From NCBI GenBank assembly GCA_942491735.1, contig CALOCN010000014.1, forward strand, positions 17,642 through 49,641: 32,000 bases of DNA, written 5' to 3'. Every line of letters starts with the position of its first letter. The stretch's first letter is position 1. The notes under the pieces were generated by a model. It was not told the DNA's origin. It saw only the letters and a list, made by a program, of their open reading frames with translations, and searched no databases. Positions 7,602-23,480 of the stretch are shown here, piece after piece. The position numbers were made by a program, and so were the translations under genes. Source of the stretch: Candidatus Eiseniibacteriota bacterium. Lineage in GTDB: Bacteria; Eisenbacteria; RBG-16-71-46; JABDJR01.

Positions 7602-7789
7602 CCACGGGATTGGTTCTGCAGGAACGCCCGATGTCTCTGGATGTGTCTCTTGAGATGGATAGACGAGCGCAAATAATTGACACTTGTATTCTAAATGATC
7701 GCACCGAGGATTGGGCAGCTTTCCAATGCCAGGAAGCGCTTCAATTCGTTGAATCTACTCTAATGTCTAGGTGTTCCGGGTCGCCAACC

Positions 7790-8764
7790 CTACTGTCCAT
7801 CCCCAATCCGCGACCCCAACCCAAACAGCTCGTAATCCTCCCCATACACATCGCTCAACACCTTGAACCCCAGGTGCCCGGTGCAATGCGCCGGCGCCAC
7901 CGTCTTCACCCCCATCCCCTTGAGCCGCTCGGCGATCCCCTGGATCACGTCCCGCGGATAAGGCAACAAGTGGTACCCCCCCACCAAAAGAGCGACATCC
8001 TCTCCCGTGGCCTCCATGGTGCTGCGGACAATCGCCTCCACCGTGCTGTGCGAACAACCCACGAACAGTACGGTGCCCTCGTCCGTGTCCACGGCCAGGG
8101 AGAGTTCGGGCAGGCCAATCAGGTTGGCTTCGGCGTCCTCGTCCTGCGGGTTCCCGTTGACATCCACTCCGGGAAACTTGGTGAAGTACCCGATATTGGA
8201 TGAGCGCGTGGCGATGAGGCGCATGCCGGGCGCGACCTCCTGGGTCTCGGACACGTACTCCACAGCCTTGTAGTAGCGGCCATCCGTGCGAAGGTGCGCC
8301 GTGGTGCTCTCGCCGTCGAAGTACCGCTGCTCCGGCGGCAGGTCGTTGGCGACGTCCGGCTCCCGCCCCGCGATGCCCATGTCGAACGGTCCGCCGGCTC
8401 CCAGGAAGTCCGTGGCGAAGTAGATCGTCACGTCCGGATTGACCTGCATGAGGTAATCGAACCCGCCGGTGTGGTCCGCGTGCGCATGGGAGGCCACGGC
8501 AAAGTCCACCTCGGCCAGATCGATCCCCAGAGCTTCCGCGTTCTGCCGCAGCACATCGGCGCTGGTCCCTGCGTCGAAAAGGACCGAGGTCCCGTTGTGA
8601 CGCAGCAGCGCGGAGTAGCCGAAGTCCTTGCGGGTGCCCTCGTGAACCGCGCCGAATGCGTCGTAGAGGTTGATGATCTCGTAGGCGTGCGCGGGTTGGG
8701 ACGAAACGGCGGCCAAACCCGCGATCAGGACACAGACAGTGGACACGATGTGTCGAGGGGTCAT
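7790..8764 (-). CDS. secreted MBL-fold metallo-hydrolase
   Basis: HAHADH metal-binding motif (VASHAHADHTGG). ATG 8764 has GGAGGA 8 nt upstream and yields the signal peptide MTPRHIVSTVCVLIAGLAAVSSQPAHA. The longer listed start 8818 lacks an SD. Confidence 0.85.
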   Translation of the reverse strand: MTPRHIVSTVCVLIAGLAAVSSQPAHAYEIINLYDAFGAVHEGTRKDFGYSALLRHNGTSVLFDAGTSADVLRQNAEALGIDLAEVDFAVASHAHADHTGGFDYLMQVNPDVTIYFATDFLGAGGPFDMGIAGREPDVANDLPPEQRYFDGESTTAHLRTDGRYYKAVEYVSETQEVAPGMRLIATRSSNIGYFTKFPGVDVNGNPQDEDAEANLIGLPELSLAVDTDEGTVLFVGCSHSTVEAIVRSTMEATGEDVALLVGGYHLLPYPRDVIQGIAERLKGMGVKTVAPAHCTGHLGFKVLSDVYGEDYELFGLGSRIGDGQ

Positions 8765-8816
8765 GGAAAGGTCCTCCGTACGGGCCAGGGTAGGAGTGAG
8801 CTGGCAGACATCCAGC

Positions 8817-8833
8817 ATACCGAAGTTCGGTAT
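8817..8833. promoter_or_regulatory. 17-bp palindrome ATACCGAA-g-TTCGGTAT overlapping a -10-like TATACT (8831-8836); candidate operator/promoter of the RyR operon
   Basis: Perfect 8-bp arms, read directly, in the divergent gap between the MBL hydrolase gene and the RyR gene. A GGCAACG(8837-8843)/CGTTGCC(8853-8859) hairpin follows. No convincing -35 element. Confidence 0.3.
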
Positions 8834-8925
8834 ACTGGCAACGTTTTCCGTCCGTTGCCGCGGTCGGAGCCCGGTCCCAACGAACGCCCTTTGAGCCTTC
8901 GCGCCGAACCGCTAGACTCCTCCCC

Positions 8926-9177
8926 ATGAATCTCGACCCCGACACCCTGGAACAATTGGCCAAGGCTGCGCACAAGGTGTGGATGGAGGGCAAGCTCCGT
9001 GACGGCTGGGTCTACGGCAAGACCACCGACAAGGCGGCCAAGGTGCACAGTTGTCTGGTGCCCTATGATGAATTGAGCGAGCCGGACAAGGAATCGGATC
9101 GGGACATGGTGCGGGGGATTCCCGACATTCTGGCCATGGCCGGCTACAGGATCGTGAAGAACGAGGTCAATACCTAG
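8926..9177 (+). CDS. stand-alone RyR (ryanodine-receptor repeat) domain protein
   Basis: The 83-aa product LAKAAHKVWMEGKLRDGWVYGKTTDKAAKVHSCLVPYDELSEPDKESDRDMVRGIPDILAMAGYRIV matches the RyR domain consensus (..aH..W......GW.yG.......HP.LvpY.eLse.eKe.dR......l...G). Confidence 0.85.
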   Translation: MNLDPDTLEQLAKAAHKVWMEGKLRDGWVYGKTTDKAAKVHSCLVPYDELSEPDKESDRDMVRGIPDILAMAGYRIVKNEVNT

Positions 9178-9201
9178 AACCCAGGACCGGGGGAAGTCTT
9201 C

Positions 9202-11280
9202 ATGGCGACCAGGTCGGATCAGAAAACTGCCGCAAACACCCTCCCGATGCAGGTCGTCGGGGATCACAGCACGGATCGATTCATCTATCTGGCCGGGGAG
9301 GATTCCGGCGACCCTCCCAATCTTCGTGAGGCCTGGGTCAATGCGCGACGGTTCTGGATCACCGACCTGCCCGGCGGCACCGGTACCCTGGTTCGATGCC
9401 TGGAGGCCGGGGGTATCGACGTCGCGAACCCAACCACCACCGAACCACAGGAAGCCATCTCGATCTACATGCTCACCAACGCCTCCAAGACGGCCGGGGT
9501 GGAGCGATGGTGTGTGGGCCAGGCTATTGTTGCCGGCGAGAAGGAGTTCTCCCGGTCCCGGTACGAGCCGGATGGCCCGGGTGCCCCGCTGATCGTTCTC
9601 GATTTCAACCAGGGCTGGCTCAAGGCCAACCAGGCCGCGATTCCCGGAACACTGGCCGATCGCCCCTTCCTGGTGCGAACCCACGATCCGTGTCAGGGGG
9701 TCTGGCAGGACTCGAGACGATCCATGAACTCGCCCGGTCTCTGGTTCTCACCCATTCAGGACATGGCCGACGGGTCGCTCTGGTTCGACGGGGCCTGGGA
9801 CTCGATCCGGGCGCGAGTGGCCAATTACCTGCGTCGGGACGACACCCTTTTCGATTCCGATCGGAACGAGTGGCTGCACTTCGTGGTCGTGCAGGTGCAG
9901 TACGACGGCGCGTTGGTATTCGGACCCGGTCTCTCGGTCCACGGCGACTTGTTGATCTTCAAGGGGGACCAGCCCAGATCCTTCGAACGCTCCACCCAGG
10001 GAACGGTGGTCGCGGGAGGGATCGTCTTCACCTACTCCTTGGCCACGCGTCTCCTGCGAGAACCCGGTGTCGACCTGACCGGGAAGGACCGCGCGAAGAT
10101 GCTGCTCGAGGCGACACGGGAGGGCCTGGTCCGGATCCGTGATCTGGTGCGATTGGGCTATGCGCCTCCGCCGAAGGATCAGGGAGCGTCGTGTCAGTGG
10201 CAGCCCGAGTCCGGGACCAATCTTCCCGCGGGGGTTCTGGGCCCGGTGCGGACCACGGAGATCATCAGCTACTCCGCCAAGGCATTCCGGCCTTCCTGGA
10301 ACACGGCCTGCGAGATCGTATCGGGTGCCGACGACCTGCTGCGCAGGAGAACGCCGTTTCGTCTGGGCAACCTCATTGCCACCACACCCGAATACGCGGA
10401 CACCCTGCTGCGTCTGGCCCGTCGTCTGGAGTCCCACGTGTCCGGCGGCAAAGGTGTTCTTTCCTTCTCGATCTTCGGCGGCCCCGGGTCCGGGAAGTCG
10501 TTCGTGGCCGAGGAAGTGGCCGCGGCCGCCGACGCCACCGGTACCAAGCTGGACATGCGGACCTTCAACCTCTCGCAGTTCACCGGTGCGGACCGCCTTC
10601 TCGATGCCTTCAAGCAGATCCAGACCATTGGCCTGCAGGGGAAGATTCCGATCGTCATCTGGGACGAGTTCGACACGGTGTGGAATGGGGAGCAGTGTGG
10701 GTGGCTGTCCTCGTTCCTCATGCCCATGCAGGATCACACGTTCTTCGATGGACACACCACGCGCGCCCTGGGCAAGAGCGTGTTCGTCTTCGTGGGCGGA
10801 ACCTTCAAGGACGACCCGAATTTCGTGGAGTGGACCGAGACTCGGGAGGGGAAGCGCCTGAAGGGCCCGGACTTCCATAGCCGGCTCAGCCGGAGTCTGG
10901 CCGTTCCGGCCGTGGATGCCGAGACCTATCCCGAGTCGTACCGGAAGTCCACAGATCCCTCCATCCTGGTGCGCGCGGTGATGATCCGGACGTTCCTGCG
11001 CAAGACCCCGGTGGAAGCTATCTCCCGGGAGGTGCTCGCCTATCTGCTGCATGTTCCCCTGCAGCACGGGGTCCGTAGCCTCAAACAACTCGTCAACAAC
11101 AGCGAACTGTCCCGGACCAGGATCTTTCGCAGCTATCACATGCCTCCGGAAGATGTCCTCGCCCTGCATGTGAAGTCCGATGGGTTCTCGGAGAACCATT
11201 CCATGGACGCGGTGACCAACCGTCTCGTGGCACACGACCTGAGAAGTTCCGATTCCCTGCCCTTGGAGTGGAAGGCCTAG
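9202..11280 (+). CDS. AAA+ ATPase with a ~320-aa N-terminal domain of unknown function (weak ribokinase/PfkB-like pattern)
   Basis: Walker A GGPGSGKS (nt 10477-10500), Walker B IVIWDEFD (nt 10654-10677), sensor-1-like VFVFVGGT and an Arg-rich DFHSRLSRSLAVP, which together indicate a classical AAA module. The N-terminus (MQVVGDHSTDRF..LPGGTGTLVRCLEAGGIDV..TVVAGGIVFTYSLATRLL) loosely follows the PfkB fold pattern but lacks the GAGD motif. The start is 24 nt after the RyR gene, with a GGGGGAAG SD. Confidence 0.85.
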   Translation: MATRSDQKTAANTLPMQVVGDHSTDRFIYLAGEDSGDPPNLREAWVNARRFWITDLPGGTGTLVRCLEAGGIDVANPTTTEPQEAISIYMLTNASKTAGVERWCVGQAIVAGEKEFSRSRYEPDGPGAPLIVLDFNQGWLKANQAAIPGTLADRPFLVRTHDPCQGVWQDSRRSMNSPGLWFSPIQDMADGSLWFDGAWDSIRARVANYLRRDDTLFDSDRNEWLHFVVVQVQYDGALVFGPGLSVHGDLLIFKGDQPRSFERSTQGTVVAGGIVFTYSLATRLLREPGVDLTGKDRAKMLLEATREGLVRIRDLVRLGYAPPPKDQGASCQWQPESGTNLPAGVLGPVRTTEIISYSAKAFRPSWNTACEIVSGADDLLRRRTPFRLGNLIATTPEYADTLLRLARRLESHVSGGKGVLSFSIFGGPGSGKSFVAEEVAAAADATGTKLDMRTFNLSQFTGADRLLDAFKQIQTIGLQGKIPIVIWDEFDTVWNGEQCGWLSSFLMPMQDHTFFDGHTTRALGKSVFVFVGGTFKDDPNFVEWTETREGKRLKGPDFHSRLSRSLAVPAVDAETYPESYRKSTDPSILVRAVMIRTFLRKTPVEAISREVLAYLLHVPLQHGVRSLKQLVNNSELSRTRIFRSYHMPPEDVLALHVKSDGFSENHSMDAVTNRLVAHDLRSSDSLPLEWKA

Positions 11281-13061
11281 GAGACGCTTTGCATCAGTCC
11301 TCTGCTGGGCCTCCGCCAAGTCCCCGCCGTCGCCTTGTCTTCCTGGGCGTGACGCTCGGCGTGTGGGCACTGGGTACGTACGGGTATTGGCTCCACGGAA
11401 CAACGCATGGGTCGAAGTACGGTGATCCCTACTTCCTGGAGTACGTCTATCGCGCCGCCCAGCTCTTCGTGCTCCACATGCCGCACGAGCAGTTGCCTCT
11501 CCCCTGGCCCCTGGAGTTCGCCCGATTCCTGGCCCCTGCCATCGCCTTTGTCGCGGTGGCCGAGGCGATGTTCTCCCTGGCGCGTCGTCGCATTACCCGC
11601 CTGCGTGTCCAGCGCCAAAGCGATCACATTCTTGTCTGTGGTGCGGGTTGGAAGGGCTTGCGTCTGGCCAAGGAGTATCAGGAACGAGGCGAGAGGGTTG
11701 TGGTGGTTGAGCGGGACGAGGCCAATCCGGGACTCGTGGAGTGCGAGACCCTCGGCATTCCGGTCCAGATAGGAGATGCCTCGGACCCGCAGTTGTTGGA
11801 GTCGTTGAACGCACACAAGGCGAAGGTGTTGCTGGCCACCGCCGGAAGCGACGGCGCCAACCTGCAGATCGCCACCGCGGCCCGCAACCTGACCGCGGCC
11901 AAGCGGGATGGGGAGCGGCACGCGCTCCAGTGTTTCGTGGACATCCGGGATGTCGCCGACCGGACCCTGTTTCGACAGCAGCCCATCCTGGCCGGGGACG
12001 ATCGCCGGATCATTGTCACGGTGACCGGAGTCGACCTGTACGAAAACTCGGCCCGCCGGTTGTTCCAGAAGTATCCGCTCCACGAAGGTGCGGACAGCGC
12101 AAAGGTCCTGGGGGTCCCGCATCTGGTTCTGCTGGGCTTTGGACAGATGGGAGAAAGCGTGCTGCTCCAGGCAGCCAGAATCGCCCACTATCCCGGTGGG
12201 CATCGGCTCCAGGTCACCGTGTTCGACCCGGCCGTGGATCTCAAGGAGAGGCAGTTCCGGGATCGCTATCCCCGGATCGATAGCGCCTGCGACGTGGTGT
12301 TCGAGTCGTGCGATCCCGATAACCCCCAGTTGCTGGATCGTGCGGCCGGCTTGTGTCGTCAGGCCGGGCAGCATGTCACGGTGGTCGTGTGCTTCCCCGA
12401 AGACAGTTTCAATACGAGAGTGGCTCTGGGTCTGTCGCGCCGACTCTCGGGGGACGCCTGCAGGGTCCGGGTTCGCTTGGACTCGGAAGATGGCTTGGCC
12501 TCCCTGGTGACCCGGGAGGATCACGCGTACCTGGATCACGACCGGTTCACTCCGTTCGGCAGTCGTGCCGAAGCCTGCACGGTGGAGATGCTGGAGCGGA
12601 GCAAGCAGGACAAGCTGGCCCGCGCCATCCACGATCACTATGTGGCCAAGGAGAGGGAAAAGGGCGAGACCCCCGAGAGCAACCCCTCCATGAGACCCTG
12701 GGAAAAGCAGAACGAGGTGATGAGGGACTCCAACCGGTACGCCGCCGATCACATCGACATCAAGCTGTGGTCGATCGGGGCTTCCCGGGTGCCGGCCTCG
12801 CGCTCGGAACCGGTGGTGCCGTTGTCGGCAGAGCAGATCGAGGTCCTGGCTCCCACCGAGCACGCGCGTTATTGCGCGGATCGATTCCTGGCCGGCTGGG
12901 CGCCGGCTCCGGCCGGACAGCCCAAGGACCACGTGGCGCGAGTCAATCCCACGCTGATTCCCTGGGAGGAGCTGAGTGAAGAGGAGAAGGAGAAGGATCG
13001 CTGGGCGGTGGGGCAGTTGCCGGAGTTGTTGGGGATGATCGGGGAGAGGATTGTCTGGTAG
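11268..13061 (+). CDS. membrane protein: N-terminal TM helices + TrkA_N (RCK/NAD-binding) domain + second Rossmann-like domain + two C-terminal RyR repeats
   Basis: GTG 11268 lies 13 nt inside the end of the AAA+ gene. Hydrophobic helices are LVFLGVTLGVWALGTYGYWL, AAQLFVL and FLAPAIAFVAVAEAMFSLA. TrkA_N: HILVCGAGWKGLRLAKEYQERGERVVVVERDE (GxGxxG at nt 11640-11657). Second Rossmann-like domain: HLVLLGFGQMGESV. RyR repeats span aa 447-505 and 524-595 (nt 12606-13052; ..TLIPWEELSEEEKEKDRWAVGQLPELLGMIG). Confidence 0.85.
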   Translation: MEGLGDALHQSSAGPPPSPRRRLVFLGVTLGVWALGTYGYWLHGTTHGSKYGDPYFLEYVYRAAQLFVLHMPHEQLPLPWPLEFARFLAPAIAFVAVAEAMFSLARRRITRLRVQRQSDHILVCGAGWKGLRLAKEYQERGERVVVVERDEANPGLVECETLGIPVQIGDASDPQLLESLNAHKAKVLLATAGSDGANLQIATAARNLTAAKRDGERHALQCFVDIRDVADRTLFRQQPILAGDDRRIIVTVTGVDLYENSARRLFQKYPLHEGADSAKVLGVPHLVLLGFGQMGESVLLQAARIAHYPGGHRLQVTVFDPAVDLKERQFRDRYPRIDSACDVVFESCDPDNPQLLDRAAGLCRQAGQHVTVVVCFPEDSFNTRVALGLSRRLSGDACRVRVRLDSEDGLASLVTREDHAYLDHDRFTPFGSRAEACTVEMLERSKQDKLARAIHDHYVAKEREKGETPESNPSMRPWEKQNEVMRDSNRYAADHIDIKLWSIGASRVPASRSEPVVPLSAEQIEVLAPTEHARYCADRFLAGWAPAPAGQPKDHVARVNPTLIPWEELSEEEKEKDRWAVGQLPELLGMIGERIVW

Positions 13062-13142
13062 GCGGGAGTCGGATCGTCGCGGGTCACCCCCAGCCTGAGG
13101 AGCCATGGAGTACAATCCCACCAACCTCTAGGAGGATCTCTC

Positions 13143-16100
13143 GTGCCCTCCAAAACCTTGTTGTCCCTGAAAACAACGCTGCGCGGCGGCCAGAGCTGGT
13201 TTGGCCGACTCGAATGGTCCCCGGACGGCACAAGGATCGCCGCCGGCTGCGGTGACAAGGCAGTCTACTTGTGGACTCCCGAAGCCGGTTCTACGCCCTC
13301 CCAGCTCAAAGGCCATAAGGGCTCGGTGTTTGACGTCAGTTGGGCACCCGACGGCCGACGTCTGGCCTCCGCGTCGCGGGACGGGACGGTTCGGGTCTGG
13401 GACGTGACCGCCGGCTATCCCGAACGTGTGCTGGAAGGTCACCAGGACGCGGTACGCACCGTTGCATGGTCCCGCGACGGCACGCGGTTGGTCACCGGCG
13501 CCCGAGACGACACCATGCGGGTCTGGGATGCGTCTTCGGGGGATCAGCTCCATCAGATCACCGGCCTGGATTCGGTCAGGAGCGTGGCTTGGTCCCCGGA
13601 CGGGTCGTTCTTGGCATCGGGGGGAGGGCCAAGAACGGTGTTCGTCTGGGACCCCAACACCTGGAAACCGGTCTGGACCGGAGCGGGACACAAGGCCTAT
13701 GTGTTCTGTGTTGCCTGGTCCCCTGACCAGAGGTTGATAGCCTCCTGCTCCACGGACAAGACGATCGGAATCTGGGAAGCCGTTTCGGGTCGCCAATTGG
13801 CGGTACTCGAGGGCCACACCAACCGTGTCGGTTGTGTCGCGTTCTCGGCGGATTGCCGATGGTTGGCCTCGAAGTCGACCGACGGCACGGTCCGCATCTG
13901 GAACACGCAGAACTGGGAGCCTGCGCAGGTGCTGGCTGAGCCCCCGGTCGCGCGTGTCTTTCCAGGCTTGGCATTTCATCCCTCGGAGCCGCTCCTAGCC
14001 ACCCTTGGGGAGAGGGACTCGGAAGTCCGCCTGTGGACCGTAGACCCGAGTGTCCCTGGAAAGAGTGACACGGCAGGGTCGCCCGAGGTGGTCCGACACA
14101 GAACCGCCAAGATCGCGCTCCTCGGAGACTCGGGCGTGGGCAAGACCACTCTGGGGCATCGCCTCGCGGAAGGTGAGTTCAAGAAGTACCCATCTACCCA
14201 TGGTCAGCAATTCTGGGTCATTCCTGAGTTCGGTACTCGCCTCGAGGACGGGACCCAATGTGAAGCCGTTCTATGGGATTTTGCGGGGCAACCCGACTAT
14301 CGGCTGGTTCATGCCCTCTTTCTCGAGGATGTGGACTTGGCTTTGATTGTCTTTGATCCCACGGATCCGAGGGATCCTTTCCATGGAGTGGACTACTGGC
14401 TCCGGGCTCTTGCCCATCGCAATGAAGCGTGTCGGTGCGTTCTGGTTGCCGGGCGCACGGACGTAGGCCAGCCCAGAGTCACCCAGGATGAAATCGATGC
14501 CTTCTGCCGTGAGCGGGGGATCGCCGGCGGGTTCGTGAGTACCAGCGCCCTTGAGGGCACAGGTATGGAAACCCTCGCCGCGATGATTCACAGTCAACTG
14601 GACTGGCAGCGGGTTGTCAGTACGACGACGACCGGGGTGTTCAAGCGGATCAAGGACCAGGTCATGGCCATTAAGGAGGATGCAGGGGGTCAGGGTGTTC
14701 TTCTCACACCCAAGCGACTACGGGAGCTTCTCGGCGAGAACGAGACCGAGACCGGGCTCGAGAACGAGTTCAGCGACGACGAGTTGTTGACGGCCGTCGA
14801 ACACCTGGCCAAGCACGGGTATGTGAGTCTTCTCCGGTCGTTTGACGAACGACGGACGATCCTTCTGGTGCCGGAATTGCTGAACAATCTGGCAGCCTCC
14901 TTCATTGTCGAGGCTCGTCGCAACCCGAAAGGTCTTGGAGCTCTCGAGGAGCGGCGAGTCCTGGAGGGGCGGTATCCCTTTCCCGAGCTGGAGGGCCTGG
15001 GGGACGGCGAGCCCCAGGTTCTGCTGGAATCCGCGGTCGCTCTGTTCATGAGAAGCAACGTGTGTTTCCGGGAAACGCTGGGTGAGGATTCGTTCCTGGT
15101 GTTCCCCGAGTTGATCAACGTGAAGGAACCTCGGGACAACGATGAGAGCGAGTTCATCGATGACTACTCGTACACTGCCCAGGGTGCCATCGAGAACGTC
15201 TACTCCTCTCTGGTCGTGCTCATGGGATACACTAACGTGATCCGTCGTGCCCACCAGTGGCGAAACCATGCGCGTTACCAGATCGAAGAAGGTGAGTTCT
15301 GCGGGTTCCGGCAGGTGCGCGAACGTGAGGGTGAGATCGACTTCCAGTTGTATGCGTCGGAGTCCGCGAAGCCCGAGTCCCGCCAGACCTTCCGCTCCCT
15401 GTTCGAGCAGTTTCTCTCCCGCCACCCGGTCACCGTTACCAAGTATCCGGTCCTGATCTGTCCGGACGGGCATCATCAGGAGCGATCCACGGTGATTCGG
15501 CGTGTGCGTCAGCAGAAGGACTTTCTCCACTGCGACGAGTGTGGTGAGCGTGTCTCGATCGCCAACGTGGTGTCCGGCCCTTCCATCGTCGTGGGCGACC
15601 ACCGAGACACCAGGAAGCATGCCGCCGAAGCCACCCGACGCACGCGCTTCGAGACCTGTCTGGTGATGATCAACGCCTATCGGAGCGATCAGAAGAGCCC
15701 TGTCTGCTTCATCAGCTATGCCTGGGGGATTCCCGAGCACGAACGCTGGGTGGAACGGAGGCTTGCCCTGGACCTGCGCAAGGCGGGGATCCGGATCATC
15801 CTTGATCGCTGGCATGGAATCGGTGGCAGCCTGGGTCGGTTCGTCGGCCAGATCGATCAGGCCGACAACATCGTTGTGGTTGGAACGCCCCTATATCGGG
15901 AGAAGTACGAGAACAAGGTCTCCGATACCGGCAGCGTCGTTGCCGCGGAGGTCGACCTGATCAACAATCGCCTCCTTGGTACGGAAGAGCACAAGGAGAC
16001 TGTTATCCCCGTGCTCCTGGATGGCGAGCCAAGGAGTTCGTTGCCTCCGCTCATGCAGGCCAGGTTTCATGTGAACTTCAAGGAGCCGGATGCCTACTTC

Positions 16101-16208
16101 ACCGGCTTGTTCGATTTGATCCTTCACCTCTATCGGATTCCCTTCGAAAGCCCCGCGGTTGCCGAACTGCGGGATGCCCTGACCCTGGAGGCTATTGGGG
16201 ACGCGTAG
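13143..16208 (+). CDS. WD40(x7)-Roc GTPase-COR-Zn-ribbon-TIR family multidomain protein (ROCO-type)
   Basis: GTG 13143 has GGAGGA (13131-13136) 6 nt upstream. Seven W(S/A)PDG-type WD40 blades cover aa ~8-300. Roc: P-loop GDSGVGKT (nt 14124-14147), DFAGQ (nt 14277-14291), a variant G4 (AGRTDV) and TSAL. The COR-like region covers aa ~490-765. Zn-ribbon: C773-x3-H777 ... C797-x2-C800 (nt 15459-15551). The C-terminal TIR_2-like domain covers aa ~852-1000 (nt 15696-16142: VCFISYAWG..GIRIILDRW..NIVVVGTPLY..VVAAEVDLI..VIPVLLDGEP). Confidence 0.9.
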   Translation: MPSKTLLSLKTTLRGGQSWFGRLEWSPDGTRIAAGCGDKAVYLWTPEAGSTPSQLKGHKGSVFDVSWAPDGRRLASASRDGTVRVWDVTAGYPERVLEGHQDAVRTVAWSRDGTRLVTGARDDTMRVWDASSGDQLHQITGLDSVRSVAWSPDGSFLASGGGPRTVFVWDPNTWKPVWTGAGHKAYVFCVAWSPDQRLIASCSTDKTIGIWEAVSGRQLAVLEGHTNRVGCVAFSADCRWLASKSTDGTVRIWNTQNWEPAQVLAEPPVARVFPGLAFHPSEPLLATLGERDSEVRLWTVDPSVPGKSDTAGSPEVVRHRTAKIALLGDSGVGKTTLGHRLAEGEFKKYPSTHGQQFWVIPEFGTRLEDGTQCEAVLWDFAGQPDYRLVHALFLEDVDLALIVFDPTDPRDPFHGVDYWLRALAHRNEACRCVLVAGRTDVGQPRVTQDEIDAFCRERGIAGGFVSTSALEGTGMETLAAMIHSQLDWQRVVSTTTTGVFKRIKDQVMAIKEDAGGQGVLLTPKRLRELLGENETETGLENEFSDDELLTAVEHLAKHGYVSLLRSFDERRTILLVPELLNNLAASFIVEARRNPKGLGALEERRVLEGRYPFPELEGLGDGEPQVLLESAVALFMRSNVCFRETLGEDSFLVFPELINVKEPRDNDESEFIDDYSYTAQGAIENVYSSLVVLMGYTNVIRRAHQWRNHARYQIEEGEFCGFRQVREREGEIDFQLYASESAKPESRQTFRSLFEQFLSRHPVTVTKYPVLICPDGHHQERSTVIRRVRQQKDFLHCDECGERVSIANVVSGPSIVVGDHRDTRKHAAEATRRTRFETCLVMINAYRSDQKSPVCFISYAWGIPEHERWVERRLALDLRKAGIRIILDRWHGIGGSLGRFVGQIDQADNIVVVGTPLYREKYENKVSDTGSVVAAEVDLINNRLLGTEEHKETVIPVLLDGEPRSSLPPLMQARFHVNFKEPDAYFTGLFDLILHLYRIPFESPAVAELRDALTLEAIGDA

Positions 16209-16243: not shown

Positions 16244-17212
16244 ATGAAAGCCATCACCTACACCCAGTACGGCCCGCCCTCGGTCCTGCGCCTCCAGGAC
16301 ATTTCCAAGCCTGTCCCCAAGCCCGATCAACTCCTTGTCCGGGTTCGCGCCGCCGCGGTCAATCCCTACGACTGGCACTTCCTGCGTGGCCTTCCCTATT
16401 TCATGCGACTTATCTCGGGGATCCGCGCGCCACGCCGGCCCACCCTGGGGGCCGACTTCGCCGGTGAGGTGGAGGCGGTGGGGAGCAAGGTCACCGAGTT
16501 CCGACCCGGTGATGCGTTGTTTGGTTTCGCGGACGGAACGTTCGCCGAGTACGTTGTGGCCAAACCCAAGCAGGTGGCGCTCAAGCCGGACGGCGTCTCG
16601 TTCGAGCAGGCGGCCTCGCTTCCCATTGCCGGCATCACCGCGCTCCAGGGCCTGCGTGATGTCGGCAAGCTGCAGCCGGGTCAGCGGGCGCTCATCGTGG
16701 GCGCATCCGGGGGCGTGGGAACGTTCGCGGTTCCGCTGGCCAAACACTTCGGCGCCCATGTGACCGGCGTGTGCAGCACGCGCAACCTGGAACTGGTCCG
16801 CTCCCTGGGTGCCGACCACGTGATTGACTACACCCAGGAAGACTGGACCACGTCGCCCGAACCGTACGATCTGGTCTTGCACCTCGCCGGGAGGGACTCG
16901 CCCGGTCGTTGCCGGACGGTGCTTACCCCCAAGGGGAGTTTGATTCTCAGCAGCGGGGATTCGGACAACCGTTGGTTGGGACCCTTGGGAAGCGTGCTCG
17001 GGGCCCTGCTCCTTTCCCCGTTTGTGGGGCAGAAGCTGACCATGGTTAACGCCAAGCCACGAACGGCTGACCTGGAGGCGCTTGCCGCCTACGTGGCGGA
17101 CGGGACGATGACTCCGATCCTGGGGGAATCCTATCCCCTGGCGGAGACCGCTCAGGCGATGGCGCAGATCGAGACGGCGCATACGCGAGGGAAGATCCTG
17201 ATAACTCCCTGA
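16244..17212 (+). CDS. NAD(P)H:quinone oxidoreductase / zinc-type alcohol dehydrogenase-like (MDR superfamily)
   Basis: MKAITYTQYGPPSVLRLQDISKPVPKPDQLLVRVRAAAVNPYDW.. is typical of zeta-crystallin-like MDRs. It has the GASGGVG Rossmann motif and the C-terminal TRGKILI. Confidence 0.9.
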   Translation: MKAITYTQYGPPSVLRLQDISKPVPKPDQLLVRVRAAAVNPYDWHFLRGLPYFMRLISGIRAPRRPTLGADFAGEVEAVGSKVTEFRPGDALFGFADGTFAEYVVAKPKQVALKPDGVSFEQAASLPIAGITALQGLRDVGKLQPGQRALIVGASGGVGTFAVPLAKHFGAHVTGVCSTRNLELVRSLGADHVIDYTQEDWTTSPEPYDLVLHLAGRDSPGRCRTVLTPKGSLILSSGDSDNRWLGPLGSVLGALLLSPFVGQKLTMVNAKPRTADLEALAAYVADGTMTPILGESYPLAETAQAMAQIETAHTRGKILITP

Positions 17213-17331
17213 CCCACCACTTTTCTTGTGCAGTTCTTCCGTCTGACGGCATTTACCCAATGTACGCCTGCCCCGCTCCGATTCCGGCTGACTGGGTCAG
17301 GCGATGGTCCACGACCCATTGGGAGACTGCC

Positions 17332-18291
17332 GTGAAGAAACAATTGATCGCCCTCGTTGCCCTGACGACCCTCCTGAGCCCCCTCGCCGCCTTCGCCGAG
17401 GTACCGCCGGTCTTCCTCCGTGGTTGGGGGGGCAATGGTCCGGACGGGTTCAATCTGGTCTCGGACCTTGGGATCGGGCCCACGGGCTATCTGTACTCGG
17501 TGGAAGTGCACGCTAGGCGAGTTCAGTACTTCAACCAGGACGGCACGCCAATGGGCTCCTGGGGCTCCTTCGGCAGTGGGCCCGGGGAGTTCAAGCTTCC
17601 CCAAGGGCTCCATGTATCCCCCACGGGTGTCGTCTATGTCGCCGATTGGGACAACTACCGATACCAGAAGTTCAATTCGGTGGGTACGTACCTTTCCGAG
17701 TTCTCCGACGGCAACAAACCCGCCGATCTTGACTTCGATTCCGCCGGAAACATTTACGTGGTCCAAACCCAGAATCACCGGATCCGGAAGTTCTCCAGTT
17801 CGGGATCCCTCATTCTCCAATGGGGCAGCTTCGGTTCCATCACCGGTCAGTTCAAGTCCCCCTATCACATCGTTATCGACGACTCGGATCGCGTCTATGT
17901 CACGGATGTGGGCAATGATCGGGTGCAGGTCTTCAACACTTCCGGTGGCTTTCTCTTTGGATGGGGGGCCAATGGAACGGGTGACGGCCAGTTCGACTCC
18001 CCGCACGGGATTGCCCAGGACGCACAAGGCAACATCTACGTCACGGACACGGACAACGGGCGAGTTCAGAAGTTCACTTCGGAGGGGGTATTCCTGACCA
18101 AGTTTGGTTCCTGGGGTAGTGGGGACGGAGAGTTCGTCGCTCCCTACGGAATCGTCGTCAACGACCTGGGAGAAGTATTCGTTGGGGACGACAAGAGGAT
18201 CCAGGTGTTCGGCGAGGCCCCGGTTGCCGTGGAGAAGACCACCTGGGGGGCGATCAAGAGCGCGGTGAGAGATCCGCAAGAGCAGCCCTAG
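17332..18291 (+). CDS. secreted NHL-repeat beta-propeller protein
   Basis: GTG 17332 yields the signal peptide VKKQLIALVALTTLLSPLAAFA; the listed ATG 17260 adds a non-signal leader. There are six repeats of G.G.GEF..P.GI.VD..GN.YV.D..N.R.Q.F type. The protein ends in ..EKTTWGAIKSAVRDPQEQP. Confidence 0.75.
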   Translation: MKKQLIALVALTTLLSPLAAFAEVPPVFLRGWGGNGPDGFNLVSDLGIGPTGYLYSVEVHARRVQYFNQDGTPMGSWGSFGSGPGEFKLPQGLHVSPTGVVYVADWDNYRYQKFNSVGTYLSEFSDGNKPADLDFDSAGNIYVVQTQNHRIRKFSSSGSLILQWGSFGSITGQFKSPYHIVIDDSDRVYVTDVGNDRVQVFNTSGGFLFGWGANGTGDGQFDSPHGIAQDAQGNIYVTDTDNGRVQKFTSEGVFLTKFGSWGSGDGEFVAPYGIVVNDLGEVFVGDDKRIQVFGEAPVAVEKTTWGAIKSAVRDPQEQP

Positions 18292-19844: not shown

Positions 19845-22800
19845 TCAACGATCGCCTTCCAGGCTCCGATCTCCGTTGTCCTCGAGTCCGGCCCAAGGAT
19901 CCATAGGCTCGCGCAATCCAGCAAGGACCTGGAATCCGTAGGTTTGTGTGAGGGAGGCCAGTTCCGGATCCTCGAGACAGGCCTTCATCAGCCGGGCGGG
20001 ATTGCGCGAGGTCTCAAAGAGCTCAAGGGCCTGCTCAGGGTTTCCTCCAGCCGCGAAGGCGCTCATCTGCAGGAGTTCCGATTCCAGGTAGAGAGGAACA
20101 ACGGTCCAGTCCAGGAGCGTTCCCACCCCACCCAATCCACCCAGAAAATCGCTCGAGAACGAGCTTGCTACGGCCCCGCTAAAACCGCTCCGCCCATACC
20201 CATACCCGAGCCCCATCGCTCCCAGTAGCCTGGTGGTGTTTTCGATACGCCTTTCCTTGAGTCGTCTGGCCAAGGACTGCAAATCACGAAGGCCGCTACC
20301 GACAACACGCCGACACCACACGACTCTGGCTTGGTCAAGGGATGAAGTCCCTGACGTCCATTGAGAGACATCGCCGATGTCGGGAAACGCCTGAACGTCA
20401 ACGAGCGCAGCGGCCGCAGCAAGGCGCACGAGTCGATAGGGAGAGTCCAGCAATTCCCTTGCGTACGAGTAGGGACGCTCCAGGCAAATATCCCGCAGCG
20501 TTTGGACAGCGATGGAAAGAAGAAACTGGTCCTCCGGCTTGCACTGGGCCGCCCGTTCAAGGAAGCGGGAGACCACTTCAACAGTGTGGTCATCGCGATA
20601 CTCGCCGTGAAACGCCTGCAGAATGTTGAACTCCGAGTCTCGTGGAAGCACTGATTGGCGGCACTCATGAGCCCGGTTGGCAAGACGTGAATGGGATTCC
20701 CAGGCGATACCCTTGACGAAGGAGTCGGAGGAGGTCATCAGGTCAAGCAACGCACTGCAGGCGTCGGCGTCGGCGTAGTGGCGCAGGGCATATGCCAAGG
20801 TGACCTGTTCGGATCGTCGAAGATGGGGGCGTCTCGAGAAGTTCAGAAGTGCGTCACGTACGCGTGGGGATCGACACCAGAAGAGCGCGTCCAAAGCAAA
20901 GGTCAAGTGCTCTGGCGCAAGCTCCTGCATGACATTGTAGGCGTAGCGAGGGCCCTCCATGAGGCCTCGCTTTCCAAGCGTGGACGGGAATGTGCCGATG
21001 TAGGGACTCTGGGAGGACGACCATTGCTCAAGACGCGTGCTGATTCTCTGGGACTGTGCTTCCGTCAGCTCCTTGGCTTGAAGCAAAGACGGGATCCAGG
21101 CCAACGGGCGAGCATCGAGTACCTGACTCAGGGCGTGGTTGGCACCCTCGGGGCACATCAGAAAGGCCGCCCGAACGATTGCCGGTAGGGCGGGACTGTC
21201 AAGGAAGCGTGAAGCCACTTGCTCCAGTACCGAAACATCACTACATGTACCGCACTGTGCGAGCGTCCAGAGTGAAGTCTCGAAATCCCCGTCCGCACGA
21301 CTTGCGTAGGAACTGAAGCCGCCTCCTCCGATGCCCGAGACCGGGACATCCTGGGGTTCAATGCGAGAGAGATACGATCTTGCCTCAGCCAGTATGGAAG
21401 AGTCACATCTGCCAAGGTCCAGCAACGCAAGCTTGGCGTGGGCACCAATGTTGGACGTGTTGGCCAGAGATTTCAGGGTGTCGACCAGGGCATCTGACTC
21501 AATGAATCCAAGCGCGCGCACGAAGGCCGCGCGATCCATATATGGTCCAAGAAGTGAGTCGATGACCTGCGTGAGCTCCCGGCCGGGCAGCTGCCGGAGC
21601 GTAGCGGCAACAACGGACGACATAGCCGGAACCCCGTCACTGAAATGGTTTCCTCCCTCACGAAGCTCTGTCTCAAGGAGTTGGTCAAGGAGGGTGGAGT
21701 CCAGGCTCGCTCCATAGGCAACGAAGTTGCAGATCCCAAACGTACGGGCCATGGCGAGACGAGGGTGAGTGCTCAGTTGCTCTAGCAGCGCCTCCGCACC
21801 CTGAATTGTAGGCTCCCGAATGAACTGTACTTTCAGTTTCTCCCACGGTTTTGCCAGGAGAGACAGGTCCCGTTCACTCTCAACGTAGATACCCTTGGCA
21901 AGTGCTACGTGCTGAGAGTCGGGGAACTGTCGAACGTCCCAATGCGACTCGCGAAGAAACCTCGGGAAGCCCAGCCAACGGTCAACAGGCGTTGGTTCGG
22001 GCGTTCCCGCGAAGAGTCGTATGATTCCCAGGTCATGCGCCCTATCGCCTTCGATATTCGACGTCACCACGCCCTTTGCGAAGGTGAGATGTGAAAGATG
22101 CGAGTATCGGAGCCCGACCACGAGCATGCTGACCAGGGCGAGACCCAGGGCGCTGGCAATGGCGATGCGTTTCGGGGACTGTCGGAGCCTGGAGCGTGGT
22201 CTGGTCGCGGCCTCCAGATCGAGCAGAAGATCGTGGCACGTTTGGTAGCGCGAGTCCGGATCCCTGTGCAGGCACTTGAGGATCACAGCGGATAGCCGGA
22301 TGGGGATCTCCGGCCGGATTGAAATGGGAGGTTCGGGCTTGTCGTACAGTGTCTTGCGGATGACCTCGGCCGGATGCCTTCCCGGAAACGGAAGCACGCC
22401 GCAAAGCATCTGGTACAGCACGCACCCCAGGGCAAAGATGTCCACTCGGCCATCGGTTGCCAGTCCCCGGAGTTGTTCCGGGGCCGCGAACCCTGGCGTC
22501 CCCGGAATCAGCTCACCCTTGAGTCCCCCGACACCGGCGGCGTGGGCGATACCGAAGTCCGTGATCTTGCAACGACCCTGGGGATCCACGACAACGTTGC
22601 GACACTTGATGTCCCGGTGAACGATACCGGCTTCGTGGGCAGCCCCGAGTGCTTCCGCAAGCTGTCCAGCGATCTCGGAGAATCGTGGAAGGGAGAGCCG
22701 TCCTTCCTGGGCGATCAAAGTGGTCAAGTCACTCCCCGGGACCAACTCCTGGACCATGAAGGCGCGCTCTTCGGATACGCCGGCGTCGTGAACCGTTGCA

Positions 22801-23372: not shown

Positions 23373-23480
23373 CTTATGGCTTGGGCGTGCAGTTCCTGGT
23401 TTCTAAGACATTCAATTTGTAGCGAACCCGAGGCCGGCTCGGAAGACCCACTCTCTCCCTACTCACCAAGAGGTACCAGG

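Follow-up and report, generated by a model that had tools for sequence, protein, structure and literature searches.

The window analysed here, a stretch of 32,000 nucleotides, contains a complete gene for a 1021-aa protein in which WD40, Roc, COR, Zn ribbon and TIR-like domains follow one another in that order. The ORF begins with GTG and is preceded by a perfect Shine-Dalgarno sequence. An identical protein (P0001), from a 3.36-Mb NCBI contig, is known from the public collection. Three genes 5' of it on the same strand are possibly associated with it. The window also has many Ser/Thr kinases and repeat proteins. The features discussed are as follows.

8926..9177, + strand: stand-alone RyR-domain protein, 83 aa, possibly associated (Pfam RyR 2.9e-18)
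9202..11280, + strand: P-loop ATPase (GPGSGKS) of 692 aa whose N-domain is uncharacterised, possibly associated (weak Pfam AAA match)
11268..13061, + strand: 597-aa TM-TrkA_N (RCK)-RyR protein with C-terminal RyR, possibly associated (Pfam TrkA_N 1.5e-18, RyR 1.1e-7)
13130..13135, + strand: Shine-Dalgarno AGGAGG, 7 nt 5' of the GTG start, read directly from the sequence
13143..16208, + strand: WD40-Roc-COR-ZnR-SEFIR gene, complete, 1021 aa, from the ORF list
13176..14057, + strand: seven-bladed WD40 beta-propeller, predicted ligand or trigger sensor, aa ~12-305 (Pfam, blade motifs)
14100..14597, + strand: Roc (Ras-of-complex) GTPase domain, aa ~320-485 (Pfam Roc and Ras, PDB Rab11)
14124-14147, + strand: Roc G1 GDSGVGKT, aa 328-335
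14277-14291, + strand: Roc G3 DFAGQ, aa 379-383
14448..14465, + strand: non-canonical G4 AGRTDV, aa 436-441
14598..15446, + strand: predicted COR domain (COR-A and COR-B), aa ~486-768 (AF2 model and Foldseek)
15447..15560, + strand: Zn ribbon C773-x3-H777 ... C797-x2-C800, aa ~769-806 (family conservation)
15561..15698, + strand: flexible linker and long helix tethering the effector, aa ~807-852 (AF2 model, conservation)
15699..16172, + strand: SEFIR-type STIR domain, predicted NAD+-consuming effector, aa ~853-1010 (PADLOC, Pfam, PDB, Foldseek)
15948..15950, + strand: E936 codon GAG, candidate catalytic residue; this Glu is invariant and sits on the helix that separates strands C and D

The sequence features listed in a preliminary description of this DNA were all found when the motif positions were recomputed, and the domain order that it gave is correct. 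It had placed seven W(S/A)PDG-type blades N-terminal to the GTPase, and seven blade motifs are indeed found (WSPDG 25, WAPDG 67, WSRDG 109, WSPDG 150, WSPDQ 192, FSADC 234, FHPSE 278), spaced by about 42 aa, together with a Pfam WD40 match of 3.7e-62 in which 6 repeats are scored. Whole-propeller Pfam families also match over aa 21-300, so that the seven blades of a beta-propeller are present both by motif and by whole-propeller match. Of 73 taxonomically diverse homologues, 72 have WD40 as their N-terminal extension. In the family alignment it is the fastest-evolving structured domain, with a mean pairwise identity of 41% versus 63-69% for Roc, COR and SEFIR.

Family distribution and gene neighbourhood

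At least 1,940 homologous proteins were collected (294 representatives at 50% clustering, E<=1e-30), and there are 426 loci in species-representative genomes from many bacterial phyla and archaea. Identity is about 50% across the Acidobacteriota, Planctomycetota, Verrucomicrobiota, Cyanobacteria, Actinomycetota, Proteobacteria, Chloroflexota and the archaeal Methanosarcinales. The ROCO-SEFIR architecture is that of a widespread, horizontally spread family with a fixed domain order. SEFIR-bearing paralogues lie in tandem at two loci (L037 and L067). Effectors are swapped on the same chassis, with relatives that carry a degenerate SEFIR followed by PNP_UDP_1 or a canonical TIR_2.

According to the Wauters 2019 review, all prokaryotic Roco proteins identified to date are LRR-Roc-COR, and it is only against this classical literature that the architecture is unusual, as the preliminary description had called it. 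It belongs to a large family that is not rare and has already been catalogued, among predicted anti-virus proteins, as 'BetaPropeller+AP-GTPase+PrimaseZnR+TIR' (Kaur et al. 2021, eLife 10:e70394, PMC8195603). What is added here is the COR domain by structure, the placing of the effector with prokaryotic SEFIR domains, the family size, the G4 signature and the invariant residues.

No neighbouring gene is conserved across the 76 other ROCO-SEFIR loci, and outside the window the gene is therefore autonomous. The homologue neighbourhoods sampled consist mostly of housekeeping genes rather than defence islands. In the window, the four genes from the small RyR gene to the ROCO-SEFIR gene are on one strand with gaps of 24, -13 and 81 nt, and promoter and terminator scans found nothing. 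An ORF of equal size and position to the 83-aa RyR gene is present at loci L086 and L087. The 692-aa ATPase belongs to a small family (51 matches). The broader family is [N]-ATPase-RyR x1-2, and RyR is fused to the ATPase or adjacent at 51 of 85 loci. Of the 49 ATPase-family loci with >=3 kb of flank, 9 have an ORF with DUF4062 in the part sampled; where complete, these ORFs encode DUF4062-STAND proteins and are usually the next ORF. Other neighbours of this family are NB-ARC proteins (L117, L123) and, at the P0147 and P0163 loci, TIR and SLATT genes.

The 597-aa protein, whose N-terminal hydrophobic segments were judged by eye to be TM helices, is one of a family of fixed architecture, TM-TrkA_N-RyR, with 82 matches. 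Its homologues have a RelA_SpoT-RyR gene as neighbour at both L170 and L171, together with a TIR-nSTAND1-TPR gene at L170 and three TIR-domain genes at L171. The DUF4062, TIR or NB-ARC sensor genes near relatives of the upstream genes are either adjacent or a few kb away. TIR-type neighbours are absent from one context in each family (P0161 for the ATPase, L172 for TM-TrkA_N-RyR).

The spacing and shared strand of the four genes, with the RyR assignments confirmed by Pfam, could be read as a Thoeris-like system, at least in this genome, in which the ROCO-SEFIR protein would turn NAD+ into an ADPR-derived messenger that the RyR domains encoded just upstream would read or buffer, the three upstream proteins then carrying out or regulating growth arrest. 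The associations of the ATPase and TM-TrkA_N-RyR families with RyR, DUF4062, NB-ARC, TIR and SLATT genes are in its favour, as are two 2026 preprints in which phage RyR-domain proteins (PF02026) bind or cleave TIR-made 2'/3'cADPR (PMC13232231; 10.64898/2026.06.04.730250). There, 6 of the 8 homologues tested bound the signal, and the binding motif described is H-x-x-W (H129/W132), which the 83-aa protein of the window has as AHKVW. However, homologues of the window's neighbouring genes, RyR and ATPase genes included, are absent from all 76 other ROCO-SEFIR loci, which means that the RyR partnership is not required for the ROCO-SEFIR family and that the co-occurrence of a STIR domain with a signal-binding effector is limited to their adjacency in the window. 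The two contexts without a TIR-type neighbour, and the scans, which gave no support to an operon, also speak against it; independent systems co-localised in a defence island would look alike; and the sole experimentally characterised bacterial SEFIR defence is reported as a single NAD+-depleting protein. On balance we regard a messenger-producing role as unlikely.

The Zn ribbon and the C-terminal domain

Between COR and the TIR-like domain there is the C-x3-H...C-x2-C knuckle that had been proposed from the sequence, with C773-x3-H777 at nt 15459-15473 and C797-x2-C800 at nt 15531-15542. Cysteines 773, 797 and 800 are practically invariant in the family, with the second CxxC present in 118-120 of 120 close homologues, while residue 777 is His in only 43 of 120. 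The first knuckle is CxxC in 68 of these homologues, C-x3-H in 37 and another C..[C/H] in 14, such that a four-ligand pattern is retained in 119 of 120. The two knuckles thus supply four Cys/His ligands of a predicted metal site, and in the same architecture this Zn ribbon has been labelled 'PrimaseZnR' (Kaur et al. 2021). The linker that follows is the least conserved segment, with 38% pairwise identity in the family alignment; AF2 pLDDT falls to 50-69 at model residues 501-520, after which a helix is predicted at 510-536.

The C-terminal domain has the motifs FISYA (aa 856-860), VVAAEVDLI (aa 932-940) and VIPVLLD (aa 954-960), and it is closest to prokaryotic SEFIR domains by PADLOC, by PDB sequence and by Foldseek. 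The PADLOC bSEFIR profile matches at 1.6e-26, and the best PDB sequence match is 5y8e, a SEFIR structure, at 3.9e-12, or about 5e-13 with the family profile, versus 8e-4 for the best TIR. In the AF2 model of the domain (pLDDT 88.6, pTM 0.85) the best Foldseek match is again 5y8e (TMt 0.72), and the top matches are SEFIR or TIR domains only. The model has the flavodoxin-like alpha/beta TIR fold of the STIR superfamily. The caution in the preliminary description that the domain might belong to the SEFIR branch is borne out by the PADLOC and 5y8e matches. The assignment as SEFIR or TIR nevertheless depends on the method, since with Pfam (here TIR_2 5.7e-13, SEFIR 1.6e-5) TIR_2 outscores SEFIR in 19 of 19 sequences scanned.

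The glutamate E936 had been suggested to occupy the position of the catalytic Glu of TIR NADases. It is invariant in 120 of 120 close homologues and in 77 of 77 taxonomically broad sequences; in the latter, D888 and R943, which with E936 form the SEFIR acidic/basic core, are invariant as well. In the AF2 model the helix that carries E936 spans aa 931-944, with strand C (aa 909-914) before it and strand D (aa 954-958) after it, and the same column is Glu in the B. cereus SEFIR (5y8e). The alignments to SARM1 E642 disagree: MAFFT pairs E642 with R943, and the hhalign register, when extended, puts the position within one residue of E936. The HMMER alignment to PDB 7uxr ('TIR domain protein'), which we take to be AbTir, pairs S927 with what is presumably its catalytic Glu.

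The SEFIR domains of eukaryotes are adaptors, not enzymes, as in IL-17R/Act1. The protein might by the same token serve as a scaffold or adaptor without enzymatic activity in a signalling pathway unrelated to immunity, with SEFIR used for homotypic assembly only; it would then be a regulatory GTPase with which complex soil bacteria signal, for example, in development or under stress. The D40A substitution in the test of bacterial SEFIR defence was picked as a predicted SEFIR-SEFIR interaction residue (10.1101/2022.05.11.491447), and both the housekeeping character of many homologue neighbourhoods and the Ser/Thr kinases and repeat proteins in which the window is rich would fit such a role. It is nevertheless very unlikely. 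E936, R943 and D888 are absolutely conserved from one phylum to another, as is more usual for residues of an active site than for those of an interface; a patchy cross-domain spread at uniform ~50% identity with tandem paralogues and PNP/TIR swaps fits conflict systems; and later work reports bacterial SEFIR as an NAD+ depleter (10.1101/2024.02.11.579819; PMC12322248).

The Roc-COR tandem

The Roc domain matches Pfam Roc (PF08477, 1.1e-19, above the gathering score) and Ras (9.4e-20) over aa 323-482, Rab11 in the PDB (7.5e-16) and the Roc domain of LRRK2 (BLASTP 2e-11), and is in these respects the Ras-like Roc GTPase of a ROCO protein. The Pfam scores of the WD40, Roc and C-terminal domains all lie well outside what chance would give. 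Pfam COR, in contrast, has no match in the protein, even at E<=1. The COR domain claimed from the sequence is borne out only by a predicted structure and Foldseek, which place it directly C-terminal to Roc. With the AF2 model (pLDDT 90.2, pTM 0.74), Foldseek ranks 1-27 are solely LRRK2, LRRK1, C. tepidum Roco or M. barkeri Roco2 (E 2.5e-19 to 9.4e-13), among them CtRoco 3dpu/6hlu and MbRoco2 4wnr (TMt 0.71). The alignments extend over 517-584 columns, save for the M. barkeri RocCORdeltaC, a truncated construct, at 344. As LRRK2, LRRK1 and C. tepidum Roco align with the model over ~520–580 columns, the product of 13143-16208 is, as predicted by AlphaFold, a true ROCO protein.

The G1 (GDSGVGKT) and G3 (DFAGQ) motifs had been described as intact, and both are conserved throughout the family, as G1 GxxGxGK[T/S] and G3 DxAGQ, together with the switch-I Thr (Thr352) of G2 and the G5 TSA. 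The G3 Gln corresponds to Q61 of Ras, where LRRK2 has Arg (Arg1398). The G4 truly deviates, reading AGRTDV rather than N/TKxD as had been noted; where it has GRTD, Rab11 has NKSD and LRRK2 has THLD in the alignments. By ROCO standards it keeps the Asp alone; homologues read A-A-(R/Q)-x-D by consensus, the Asp being present in 120 of 120 and 77 of 77 sequences and the Lys in none. The odd G4 is a conserved family signature that retains the guanine-specifying Asp. Since the Asp is retained family-wide and LRRK2 itself, the Roc domain of which is described in abstracts as a GTPase, has THLD, the G4 is no argument for a loss of GTP binding. Conservation of G1, Thr352, G3 with its Gln, G5 and the G4 Asp makes a hydrolysis-competent switch plausible. 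[quoted passage not shown] A degenerate or re-specified Roc, binding ATP or another nucleotide or serving as a constitutive structural domain instead of a GTP/GDP switch, would account for a G4 that lacks Asn and Lys in every family member but is highly improbable given the invariant Asp, the other conserved motifs, the His for Lys at the aligned position in LRRK2 and this affinity.

Proposed function and comparison with known systems

The preliminary inference of a GTP-switched sensor-effector protein fits all of the comparative evidence. The protein is probably a self-contained, NLR-like, GTP-switched abortive-infection NADase, with a ROCO module where such sensors usually have a STAND ATPase. 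Recognition of a trigger, presumably a component of a phage or other invader, would fall to the variable seven-bladed WD40 domain. The Roc-COR tandem would act as the guanine-nucleotide switch, binding of the trigger changing its conformation or oligomeric state. The Zn ribbon and flexible helical linker would tether the SEFIR-type STIR domain, which, when brought together with other copies, would consume NAD+ and so abort the infection. We infer the trigger, the direction of the nucleotide cycle, the oligomerisation and the NADase chemistry.

Counted for this mechanism are the domain identities, the conserved GTPase motifs, the invariance of E936, R943 and D888, and the hallmarks of immune genes, namely broad spread, a fast WD40 domain, tandem paralogues, unconserved neighbours and effector swaps. 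Bacterial SEFIR has, furthermore, been validated by experiment as a defence that consists of a single protein and depletes NAD+ (10.1101/2022.05.11.491447; 10.1101/2024.02.11.579819; PMC12322248), and AP-GTPase+COR proteins with variable effectors including TIR have been proposed as counter-invader systems (Kaur et al. 2021, PMC8195603). Counted against it are the housekeeping neighbourhoods, the higher score of Pfam TIR_2 than of SEFIR, the disagreeing alignments of E936 and the adaptor role of eukaryotic SEFIR domains. In addition, CtRoco monomerises upon GTP binding (PMC11052575), which does not obviously favour clustering of the effector.

Among known systems, Thoeris is comparable only if the protein generates a signal: a STIR-family domain is encoded beside RyR proteins, and RyR has been shown to bind gcADPR. 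ROCO-SEFIR differs in being without a ThsA-like SIR2/SLOG or Macro effector and in that the RyR partnership is absent from the 76 other loci, and signal production by SEFIR is hypothetical. The gasdermin system of Runella includes a Roc-COR-CHAT protease (Johnson et al., 10.1101/2021.06.07.447441), which is likewise a bacterial Roc-COR fused to an immune or cell-death effector, but there a caspase-like CHAT protease acts on a separately encoded gasdermin, whereas here the effector is SEFIR and the gene is autonomous in most genomes. STAND NLR-like sensors with TIR or DUF4062 (Avs/bNACHT-like; neighbours in L086, L087 and L170) share the sensor-NTPase-effector logic and NAD-targeting effector domains, with a STAND AAA+ ATPase in place of the Ras-like GTPase and COR and with the effector N-terminal rather than C-terminal.

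Chlorobium tepidum Roco and human LRRK2 and LRRK1 share the predicted Roc-COR tandem fold (Foldseek E 2.5e-19 to ~1e-17), and LRRK2 also shares a G4 that departs from NKxD yet keeps the Asp. Here, though, the sensor is an N-terminal WD40 and not LRR, the WD40 of LRRK2 being C-terminal; the output is SEFIR, where theirs is a kinase or nothing; the Ras-like G3 Gln is retained, unlike in LRRK2; and identity is only 13-19%, with Pfam COR models missing ROCO-SEFIR. In the case of bSEFIR (Millman et al. 2022; PADLOC PDLC03957), which is reported to act by abortive infection with NAD+ depletion (10.1101/2024.02.11.579819; PMC12322248), the SEFIR domains are homologous, the match covering profile positions 21-193. 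They have in common the FxSYxW start and the LDRW strand, and in the related SEFIR of B. cereus a Glu aligns with E936. The SEFIR of bSEFIR is N-terminal and followed by an unrelated C-terminal region, while here it lies at aa 853-1010 of 1021, C-terminal to WD40-Roc-COR-ZnR, and positions 194-412 of the 412-position profile are unmatched.

Also close are the prokaryotic AP-GTPase (Roc)+COR proteins of Kaur et al. 2021, which combine in one polypeptide an N-terminal repeat sensor, a Roc switch and a variable C-terminal effector, TIR included, and which also occur as several paralogues per genome. Their text covers LRR-bearing versions, and their beta-propeller entries are without a COR call and have the effector labelled TIR, whereas here COR is predicted by structure and the effector is placed with the prokaryotic SEFIR domains.

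Domain composition of the ROCO-SEFIR protein

The ROCO-SEFIR gene has a perfect Shine-Dalgarno sequence, AGGAGG, 7 nt 5' of its start codon. On recomputation the ORF, the seven blades, the GTPase motifs, the knuckle and the C-terminal motifs are present exactly as they were read in the preliminary description.

Features of the ROCO-SEFIR gene and protein
13143..16208 (+): ORF of 1021 aa, GTG start
aa 25, 67, 109, 150, 192, 234, 278: seven WD40 blade motifs (coordinates recomputed)
aa 328-335: Roc G1, GDSGVGKT
aa 379-383: Roc G3, DFAGQ
aa 436-441: Roc G4 position, AGRTDV
C773-x3-H777 … C797-x2-C800: Zn knuckle
aa 856-860 and aa 954-960: C-terminal domain motifs FISYA and VIPVLLD
15948-15950: GAG codon of E936

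In Pfam searches the protein matches WD40 (3.7e-62), Roc (1.1e-19) and Ras (9.4e-20), and its last 198 aa match TIR_2 (5.7e-13) and SEFIR (1.6e-5). There is no Pfam match of any kind, even at E<=1, in the stretch between Roc and the C-terminal domain (355 residues, aa 486-840 scanned), so that the COR first assigned there was an unverified guess. A model of aa 311-1021 was made with AlphaFold2 from the 120-sequence family alignment (mean pLDDT 90.2, pTM 0.74). When this model is compared with the PDB using Foldseek, ranks 1-27 are exclusively ROCO proteins (E 2.5e-19 to 9.4e-13), among them LRRK2, LRRK1, the C. tepidum Roco (6hlu, 3dpu) and M. barkeri Roco2 (4wnr, TMt 0.71). These alignments span 517-584 columns, about three times longer than the plain small-GTPase matches ranked below, with the exception of the truncated M. 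barkeri construct at 344 columns. The unbroken run of ROCO matches and the length of their alignments show that the protein is a genuine ROCO. The order originally read, WD40-Roc-COR-Zn ribbon-TIR-like, is correct, the COR having now been found through AlphaFold2 and Foldseek.

The early caution that the C-terminal domain resembles the SEFIR branch was apt. The PADLOC bSEFIR model matches this domain at 1.6e-26, and the family profile finds the B. cereus SEFIR structure 5y8e in the PDB at ~5e-13, where the best bacterial TIR scores 8e-4. A Foldseek search with an AlphaFold2 model of the domain (pLDDT 88.6, pTM 0.85) also has 5y8e as its best match (TMt 0.72), with the TIRs of TLR1/6/10, the SEFIRs of IL-17RA/ACT1, and SARM1 ranked below it. 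These scores favour SEFIR, but Pfam ranks TIR_2 higher, in 19/19 family members scanned, and the domain is therefore called here a SEFIR-type STIR (TIR/SEFIR superfamily) domain.

Conserved residues, distribution and variation of the family

Conservation was assessed in 120 close homologues and in 77 sequences from species-representative genomes of many phyla. In both sets the G1, the switch-I Thr, the G3 DxAGQ and the G5 TSA are conserved family-wide, and the G4 reads A-A-(R/Q)-x-D, with the Asp in 100% and Lys never present. The uniformity of this pattern and its invariant Asp mark it as a stable signature of the family and not as decay. Aligned pairwise, GRTD falls opposite NKSD of Rab11 and opposite THLD of LRRK2 (the Roc sequence used is a 100% match to PDB 2zej), so that LRRK2, an established ROCO GTPase, provides a precedent for a G4 with Asp and without Lys. 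Such a G4 also agrees with the micromolar affinity of ROCO proteins for nucleotides (PMC6337361; PMC4104024). The G4 was thus rightly described as departing from N/TKxD, but this departure is probably not a defect; as a family-wide trait it offers a natural experiment in how ROCO GTPases recognise guanine.

C773, C797 and C800 of the Zn knuckle are virtually invariant. Its first half is CxxC in 68/120 and C-x3-H in 37/120, an alternation with the pattern of a four-ligand Zn ribbon. H777 was at one point suspected of being a non-ligand, as His is present in only 43/120, and this was dropped on seeing that the raw alignment alternates between CxxC and C-x3-H.

The invariant or near-invariant residues of the SEFIR domain are FxSYAWG, D888, R899-F900, G914-T915, Y918, K921, N924, G930, A934, E936 and R943, with E936, R943 and D888 each in 77/77. 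E936 had been proposed to stand where TIR NADases carry the catalytic Glu. In the predicted structure it is within a helix (aa 931-944) between strands C and D, which we take to be the element bearing E642 in SARM1, and Glu also occupies this column in the B. cereus SEFIR. Alignments to the SARM1 TIR sequence (a 100% match to PDB) are inconsistent: hhalign with the family profile ends just short of the Glu, the extended register placing E936 <=1 residue from E642; and MAFFT places E642 opposite R943. An HMMER alignment to another TIR-domain protein, 7uxr, has yet another register and stops at aa ~939. Because of this disagreement catalytic equivalence of E936 and E642 is plausible but unproven. 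Mutation of D40 in a Bacillus SEFIR protein abolished defence (10.1101/2022.05.11.491447), and D888, in LDRW, is probably its counterpart, judging from the numbering.

A query from Roc to the C-terminus finds at least 1,940 proteins, of which the best 120 all have ~50% identity over 98-99% of the query. An exhaustive HMMER search of 1.84 billion cluster representatives, with COR to the C-terminus as the query, finds 294 representatives at E<=1e-30. A set restricted to a single genome per species yields 426 loci. Among the best 80 are Acidobacteriota (many), Planctomycetota, Verrucomicrobiota, Cyanobacteria, Chlorobiaceae, Actinomycetota (cultured Phytohabitans), Nitrosomonas communis, Thiomargarita, Gemmatimonadota and Chloroflexota, as well as archaea (Methanothrix/Methanosarcinales). 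Identity is 46-53% throughout these 80 loci, which across such distant phyla and archaea indicates spread by horizontal transfer. Viral contigs hardly contain the family: a scan of them gave three matches only, at 25% identity and confined to the GTPase domain.

The WD40 is N-terminal in 72/73 homologues, in an extension with a median of 346 aa, and a survey of homologues, as initially proposed, finds the same architecture in many phyla and archaea. The WD40 evolves faster than the rest of the protein (mean pairwise identity 41% vs 63-69%). Homologues of ~700-780 aa might be taken for a WD40-less architecture; this was rejected, since a remnant of the last blade is present and truncation of the gene calls is the probable cause. 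On the WD40-Roc-COR-ZnR chassis some relatives carry a degenerate SEFIR-like segment followed by another terminal domain, a PNP_UDP_1 phosphorylase in protein P0260 and a canonical TIR_2 in P0289, so that the C-terminal position behaves like a slot for interchangeable effectors. P0280 and P0304 also have extra C-terminal regions, for which Pfam gives no match.

Tandem ROCO-SEFIR paralogues adjoin the main copy at two loci (L037, 2860-4989; L067, 8158-10335). Large WD40-repeat ORFs adjoin the gene at two others (L061, 1690-4905; L050, 8380-12645), and one MAG has two copies on separate contigs (L039, L048). No gene family is shared by the neighbours of more than 8/76 ROCO-SEFIR loci, the top cluster being a generic ABC ATPase, and the gene families neighbouring the gene in the window are found in none of the 76 other loci. 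Two homologue neighbourhoods sampled contain housekeeping genes.

The RyR-rich region upstream and the other genes of the window

Three genes directly 5' of the ROCO-SEFIR gene share its strand, with gaps of 24, -13 and 81 nt. A promoter and terminator scan returned no sites and is uninformative for the host organism.

Genes 5' of the ROCO-SEFIR gene
8926-9177 (+): stand-alone RyR protein, 83 aa (Pfam RyR 2.9e-18), missing from the ORF list
9202-11280 (+): 692-aa protein, its N-terminal ~420 aa an uncharacterised and highly conserved domain, with a P-loop ATPase (GPGSGKS)
11268-13061 (+): TM-TrkA_N(RCK)-RyR protein, 597 aa, TM segments read by eye, of a family annotated 'NAD-binding protein' or 'Kch'

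The 83-aa ORF ends 24 nt 5' of the ATPase gene, and two ATPase homologue loci (L086, L087) have an ORF of matching size at the corresponding position. It carries AHKVW, the H-x-x-W motif reported as gcADPR-binding in the phage RyR protein Tad. The close family of the 692-aa ATPase is small (51 hits), and the broader metagenomic family has the form [N-domain]-ATPase-RyR x1-2, ~850-950 aa (L086-L169). RyR is fused at the ATPase C-terminus or present in a separate nearby ORF at 51/85 loci; these 51 were found in a single pass with a profile of five trusted RyR domains, which answers the concern of jackhmmer drift, and in the fused ORFs it places RyR at discrete C-terminal coordinates. Where there is enough flank, 9/49 loci have an ORF bearing DUF4062 near the ATPase homologue. 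The complete ones are DUF4062-STAND proteins, usually the next gene (gap of 82 nt at L143). NB-ARC proteins, TIR genes and SLATT genes are also neighbours, and DUF4062-STAND or NB-ARC giants are often directly next to the ATPase homologue. The P0147 locus and L089, where ATPase homologues have SLATT-domain proteins and several TIR_2 proteins on their flanks (at L089 also a CHAT-FGE-sulfatase gene), are dense clusters of nucleotide-signalling or conflict domains.

The TM-TrkA_N-RyR family (82 hits) has a fixed architecture. Its closest homologue (L170) adjoins a TIR-nSTAND1-TPR gene and has an AAA ATPase and a gene for RelA_SpoT-RyR close by, and another (L171) is surrounded by three TIR-domain genes and one for RelA_SpoT-RyR; the context in Archangium (L172) is without TIR-domain or RelA_SpoT-RyR neighbours. 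The clustering at L170 and L171 suggests that several output modules use RyR as a common input domain. In two 2026 preprints, RyR-domain proteins of phages (PF02026) are shown to bind TIR-made 2'/3'cADPR or to cleave it (PMC13232231; 10.64898/2026.06.04.730250). To date RyR is known only as a phage anti-Thoeris sponge or glycosidase, and no description of host-encoded RyR-domain effectors was found. Together, this binding of cADPR isomers and the recurrence of RyR genes beside NAD-processing immune sensors make it a testable suggestion that RyR domains have a cellular role in the nucleotide signalling of bacteria.

It is conceivable, if unlikely, that host RyR proteins (in the window the 83-aa protein, the ATPase and TM-TrkA_N-RyR, elsewhere the ATPase-RyR fusions and RelA_SpoT-RyR) are receivers or regulators of ADPR-derived messengers from SEFIR, TIR and DUF4062 NLR-like sensors, and that 8926-16208 is a Thoeris-like system. 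That the ROCO-SEFIR protein signals in this way to RyR receivers, at least in the genome of the window, is similarly doubtful. If it were so, the four-gene run would be new, with ROCO-SEFIR as sensor and signal generator and RyR as the cellular receptor module. However, the module is absent from 76 other ROCO-SEFIR loci, which is strong counter-evidence for the family as a whole, and plain co-localisation in a defence island would account for the RyR and TIR neighbours too. The RyR-rich neighbourhood is in any case independent evidence that the ROCO-SEFIR gene has an immune setting.

Other genes of the window
6912-7601 (-): LuxR/GerE-type regulator
16244-17212 (+): Zn-dependent dehydrogenase/quinone oxidoreductase
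17260-18291 (+): NHL-repeat propeller protein
23376-25103 (+): LVIVD-repeat propeller protein

None of these four is common to other ROCO-SEFIR loci, and PADLOC finds nothing among the window neighbours beyond generic kinase-domain matches to PD-T4-6. There are two large Ser/Thr kinases, one with HEAT repeats (19845-23372, -, 1175 aa) and one with a PD40/WD40-like propeller (27423-30509, +, 1028 aa), which match PADLOC PD-T4-6, mad6 and MkoA through the generic kinase domain only. Predicted ORFs at 1380-2453, 2999-4225 and 4225-6756 (all -; 357, 408 and 843 aa) and 434-1360 (+; 308 aa) have no Pfam or PADLOC match; the 408- and 843-aa ORFs share one base and look operon-like. The 342-aa ORF at 7790-8818 (-) has a HAHADH motif typical of the metallo-beta-lactamase fold and is probably a real gene. 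An ORF of 408 aa overlapping it in another frame (7767-8993, -) is Arg/Gly-rich, has no Pfam match and looks spurious.

Proposed mechanism and relation to known systems

On the best-supported reading, the ROCO-SEFIR protein is an NLR-like sensor that acts autonomously. Its variable WD40 propeller would detect the trigger, Roc-COR would work as a guanine-nucleotide switch, and the flexibly tethered SEFIR domain, when clustered, would consume NAD+. We infer the whole chain, from trigger binding through nucleotide exchange and oligomerisation to NAD+ cleavage. Roc has all its catalytic motifs, and these include a Ras-Q61-like Gln not found in LRRK2. Bacterial SEFIR has been validated by experiment as a single-protein defence (10.1101/2022.05.11.491447), with NAD+ depletion and abortive infection reported (10.1101/2024.02.11.579819; PMC12322248). 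A SEFIR/TIR-type effector would then be controlled widely, in bacteria and archaea, by an LRRK2-type Roc-COR switch and not by a STAND ATPase. A soluble prokaryotic ROCO whose output is probably simple NAD+ consumption would offer an easy enzymatic read-out for an open question in research on LRRK2, by what means COR passes the nucleotide state of Roc on to an effector domain, and would be a tractable model of ROCO-to-effector coupling.

The architecture, initially called unusual, is so by comparison with the classical review of Wauters et al. (2019), for whom every prokaryotic Roco identified to date is LRR-Roc-COR (PMC6337361). With at least 1,940 such proteins the term is overstated. Kaur, Iyer, Burroughs and Aravind (2021) describe 'counter-invader' proteins of prokaryotes built on AP-GTPase+COR, whose C-terminal effector is one of at least 24 alternatives, TIR among them, and their source data list 'BetaPropeller+AP-GTPase+PrimaseZnR+TIR' in a Methanobacteriales archaeon (1195 aa) and 'BetaPropeller+AP-GTPase+TIR' in Anabaena (1179 aa) (PMC8195603). 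A study of the Runella gasdermin names a Roc-COR-CHAT protease (10.1101/2021.06.07.447441). The ROCO-SEFIR protein is therefore an uncharacterised member of an already predicted class. It is outside the bSEFIR system as defined, because there the SEFIR is N-terminal by definition, and this protein matches only the domain part of the profile. The present analysis adds to what is known of this class by confirming COR structurally, placing the C-terminal domain with SEFIR, defining the G4 signature and the invariant residues, charting the distribution and giving evidence that the gene is autonomous.
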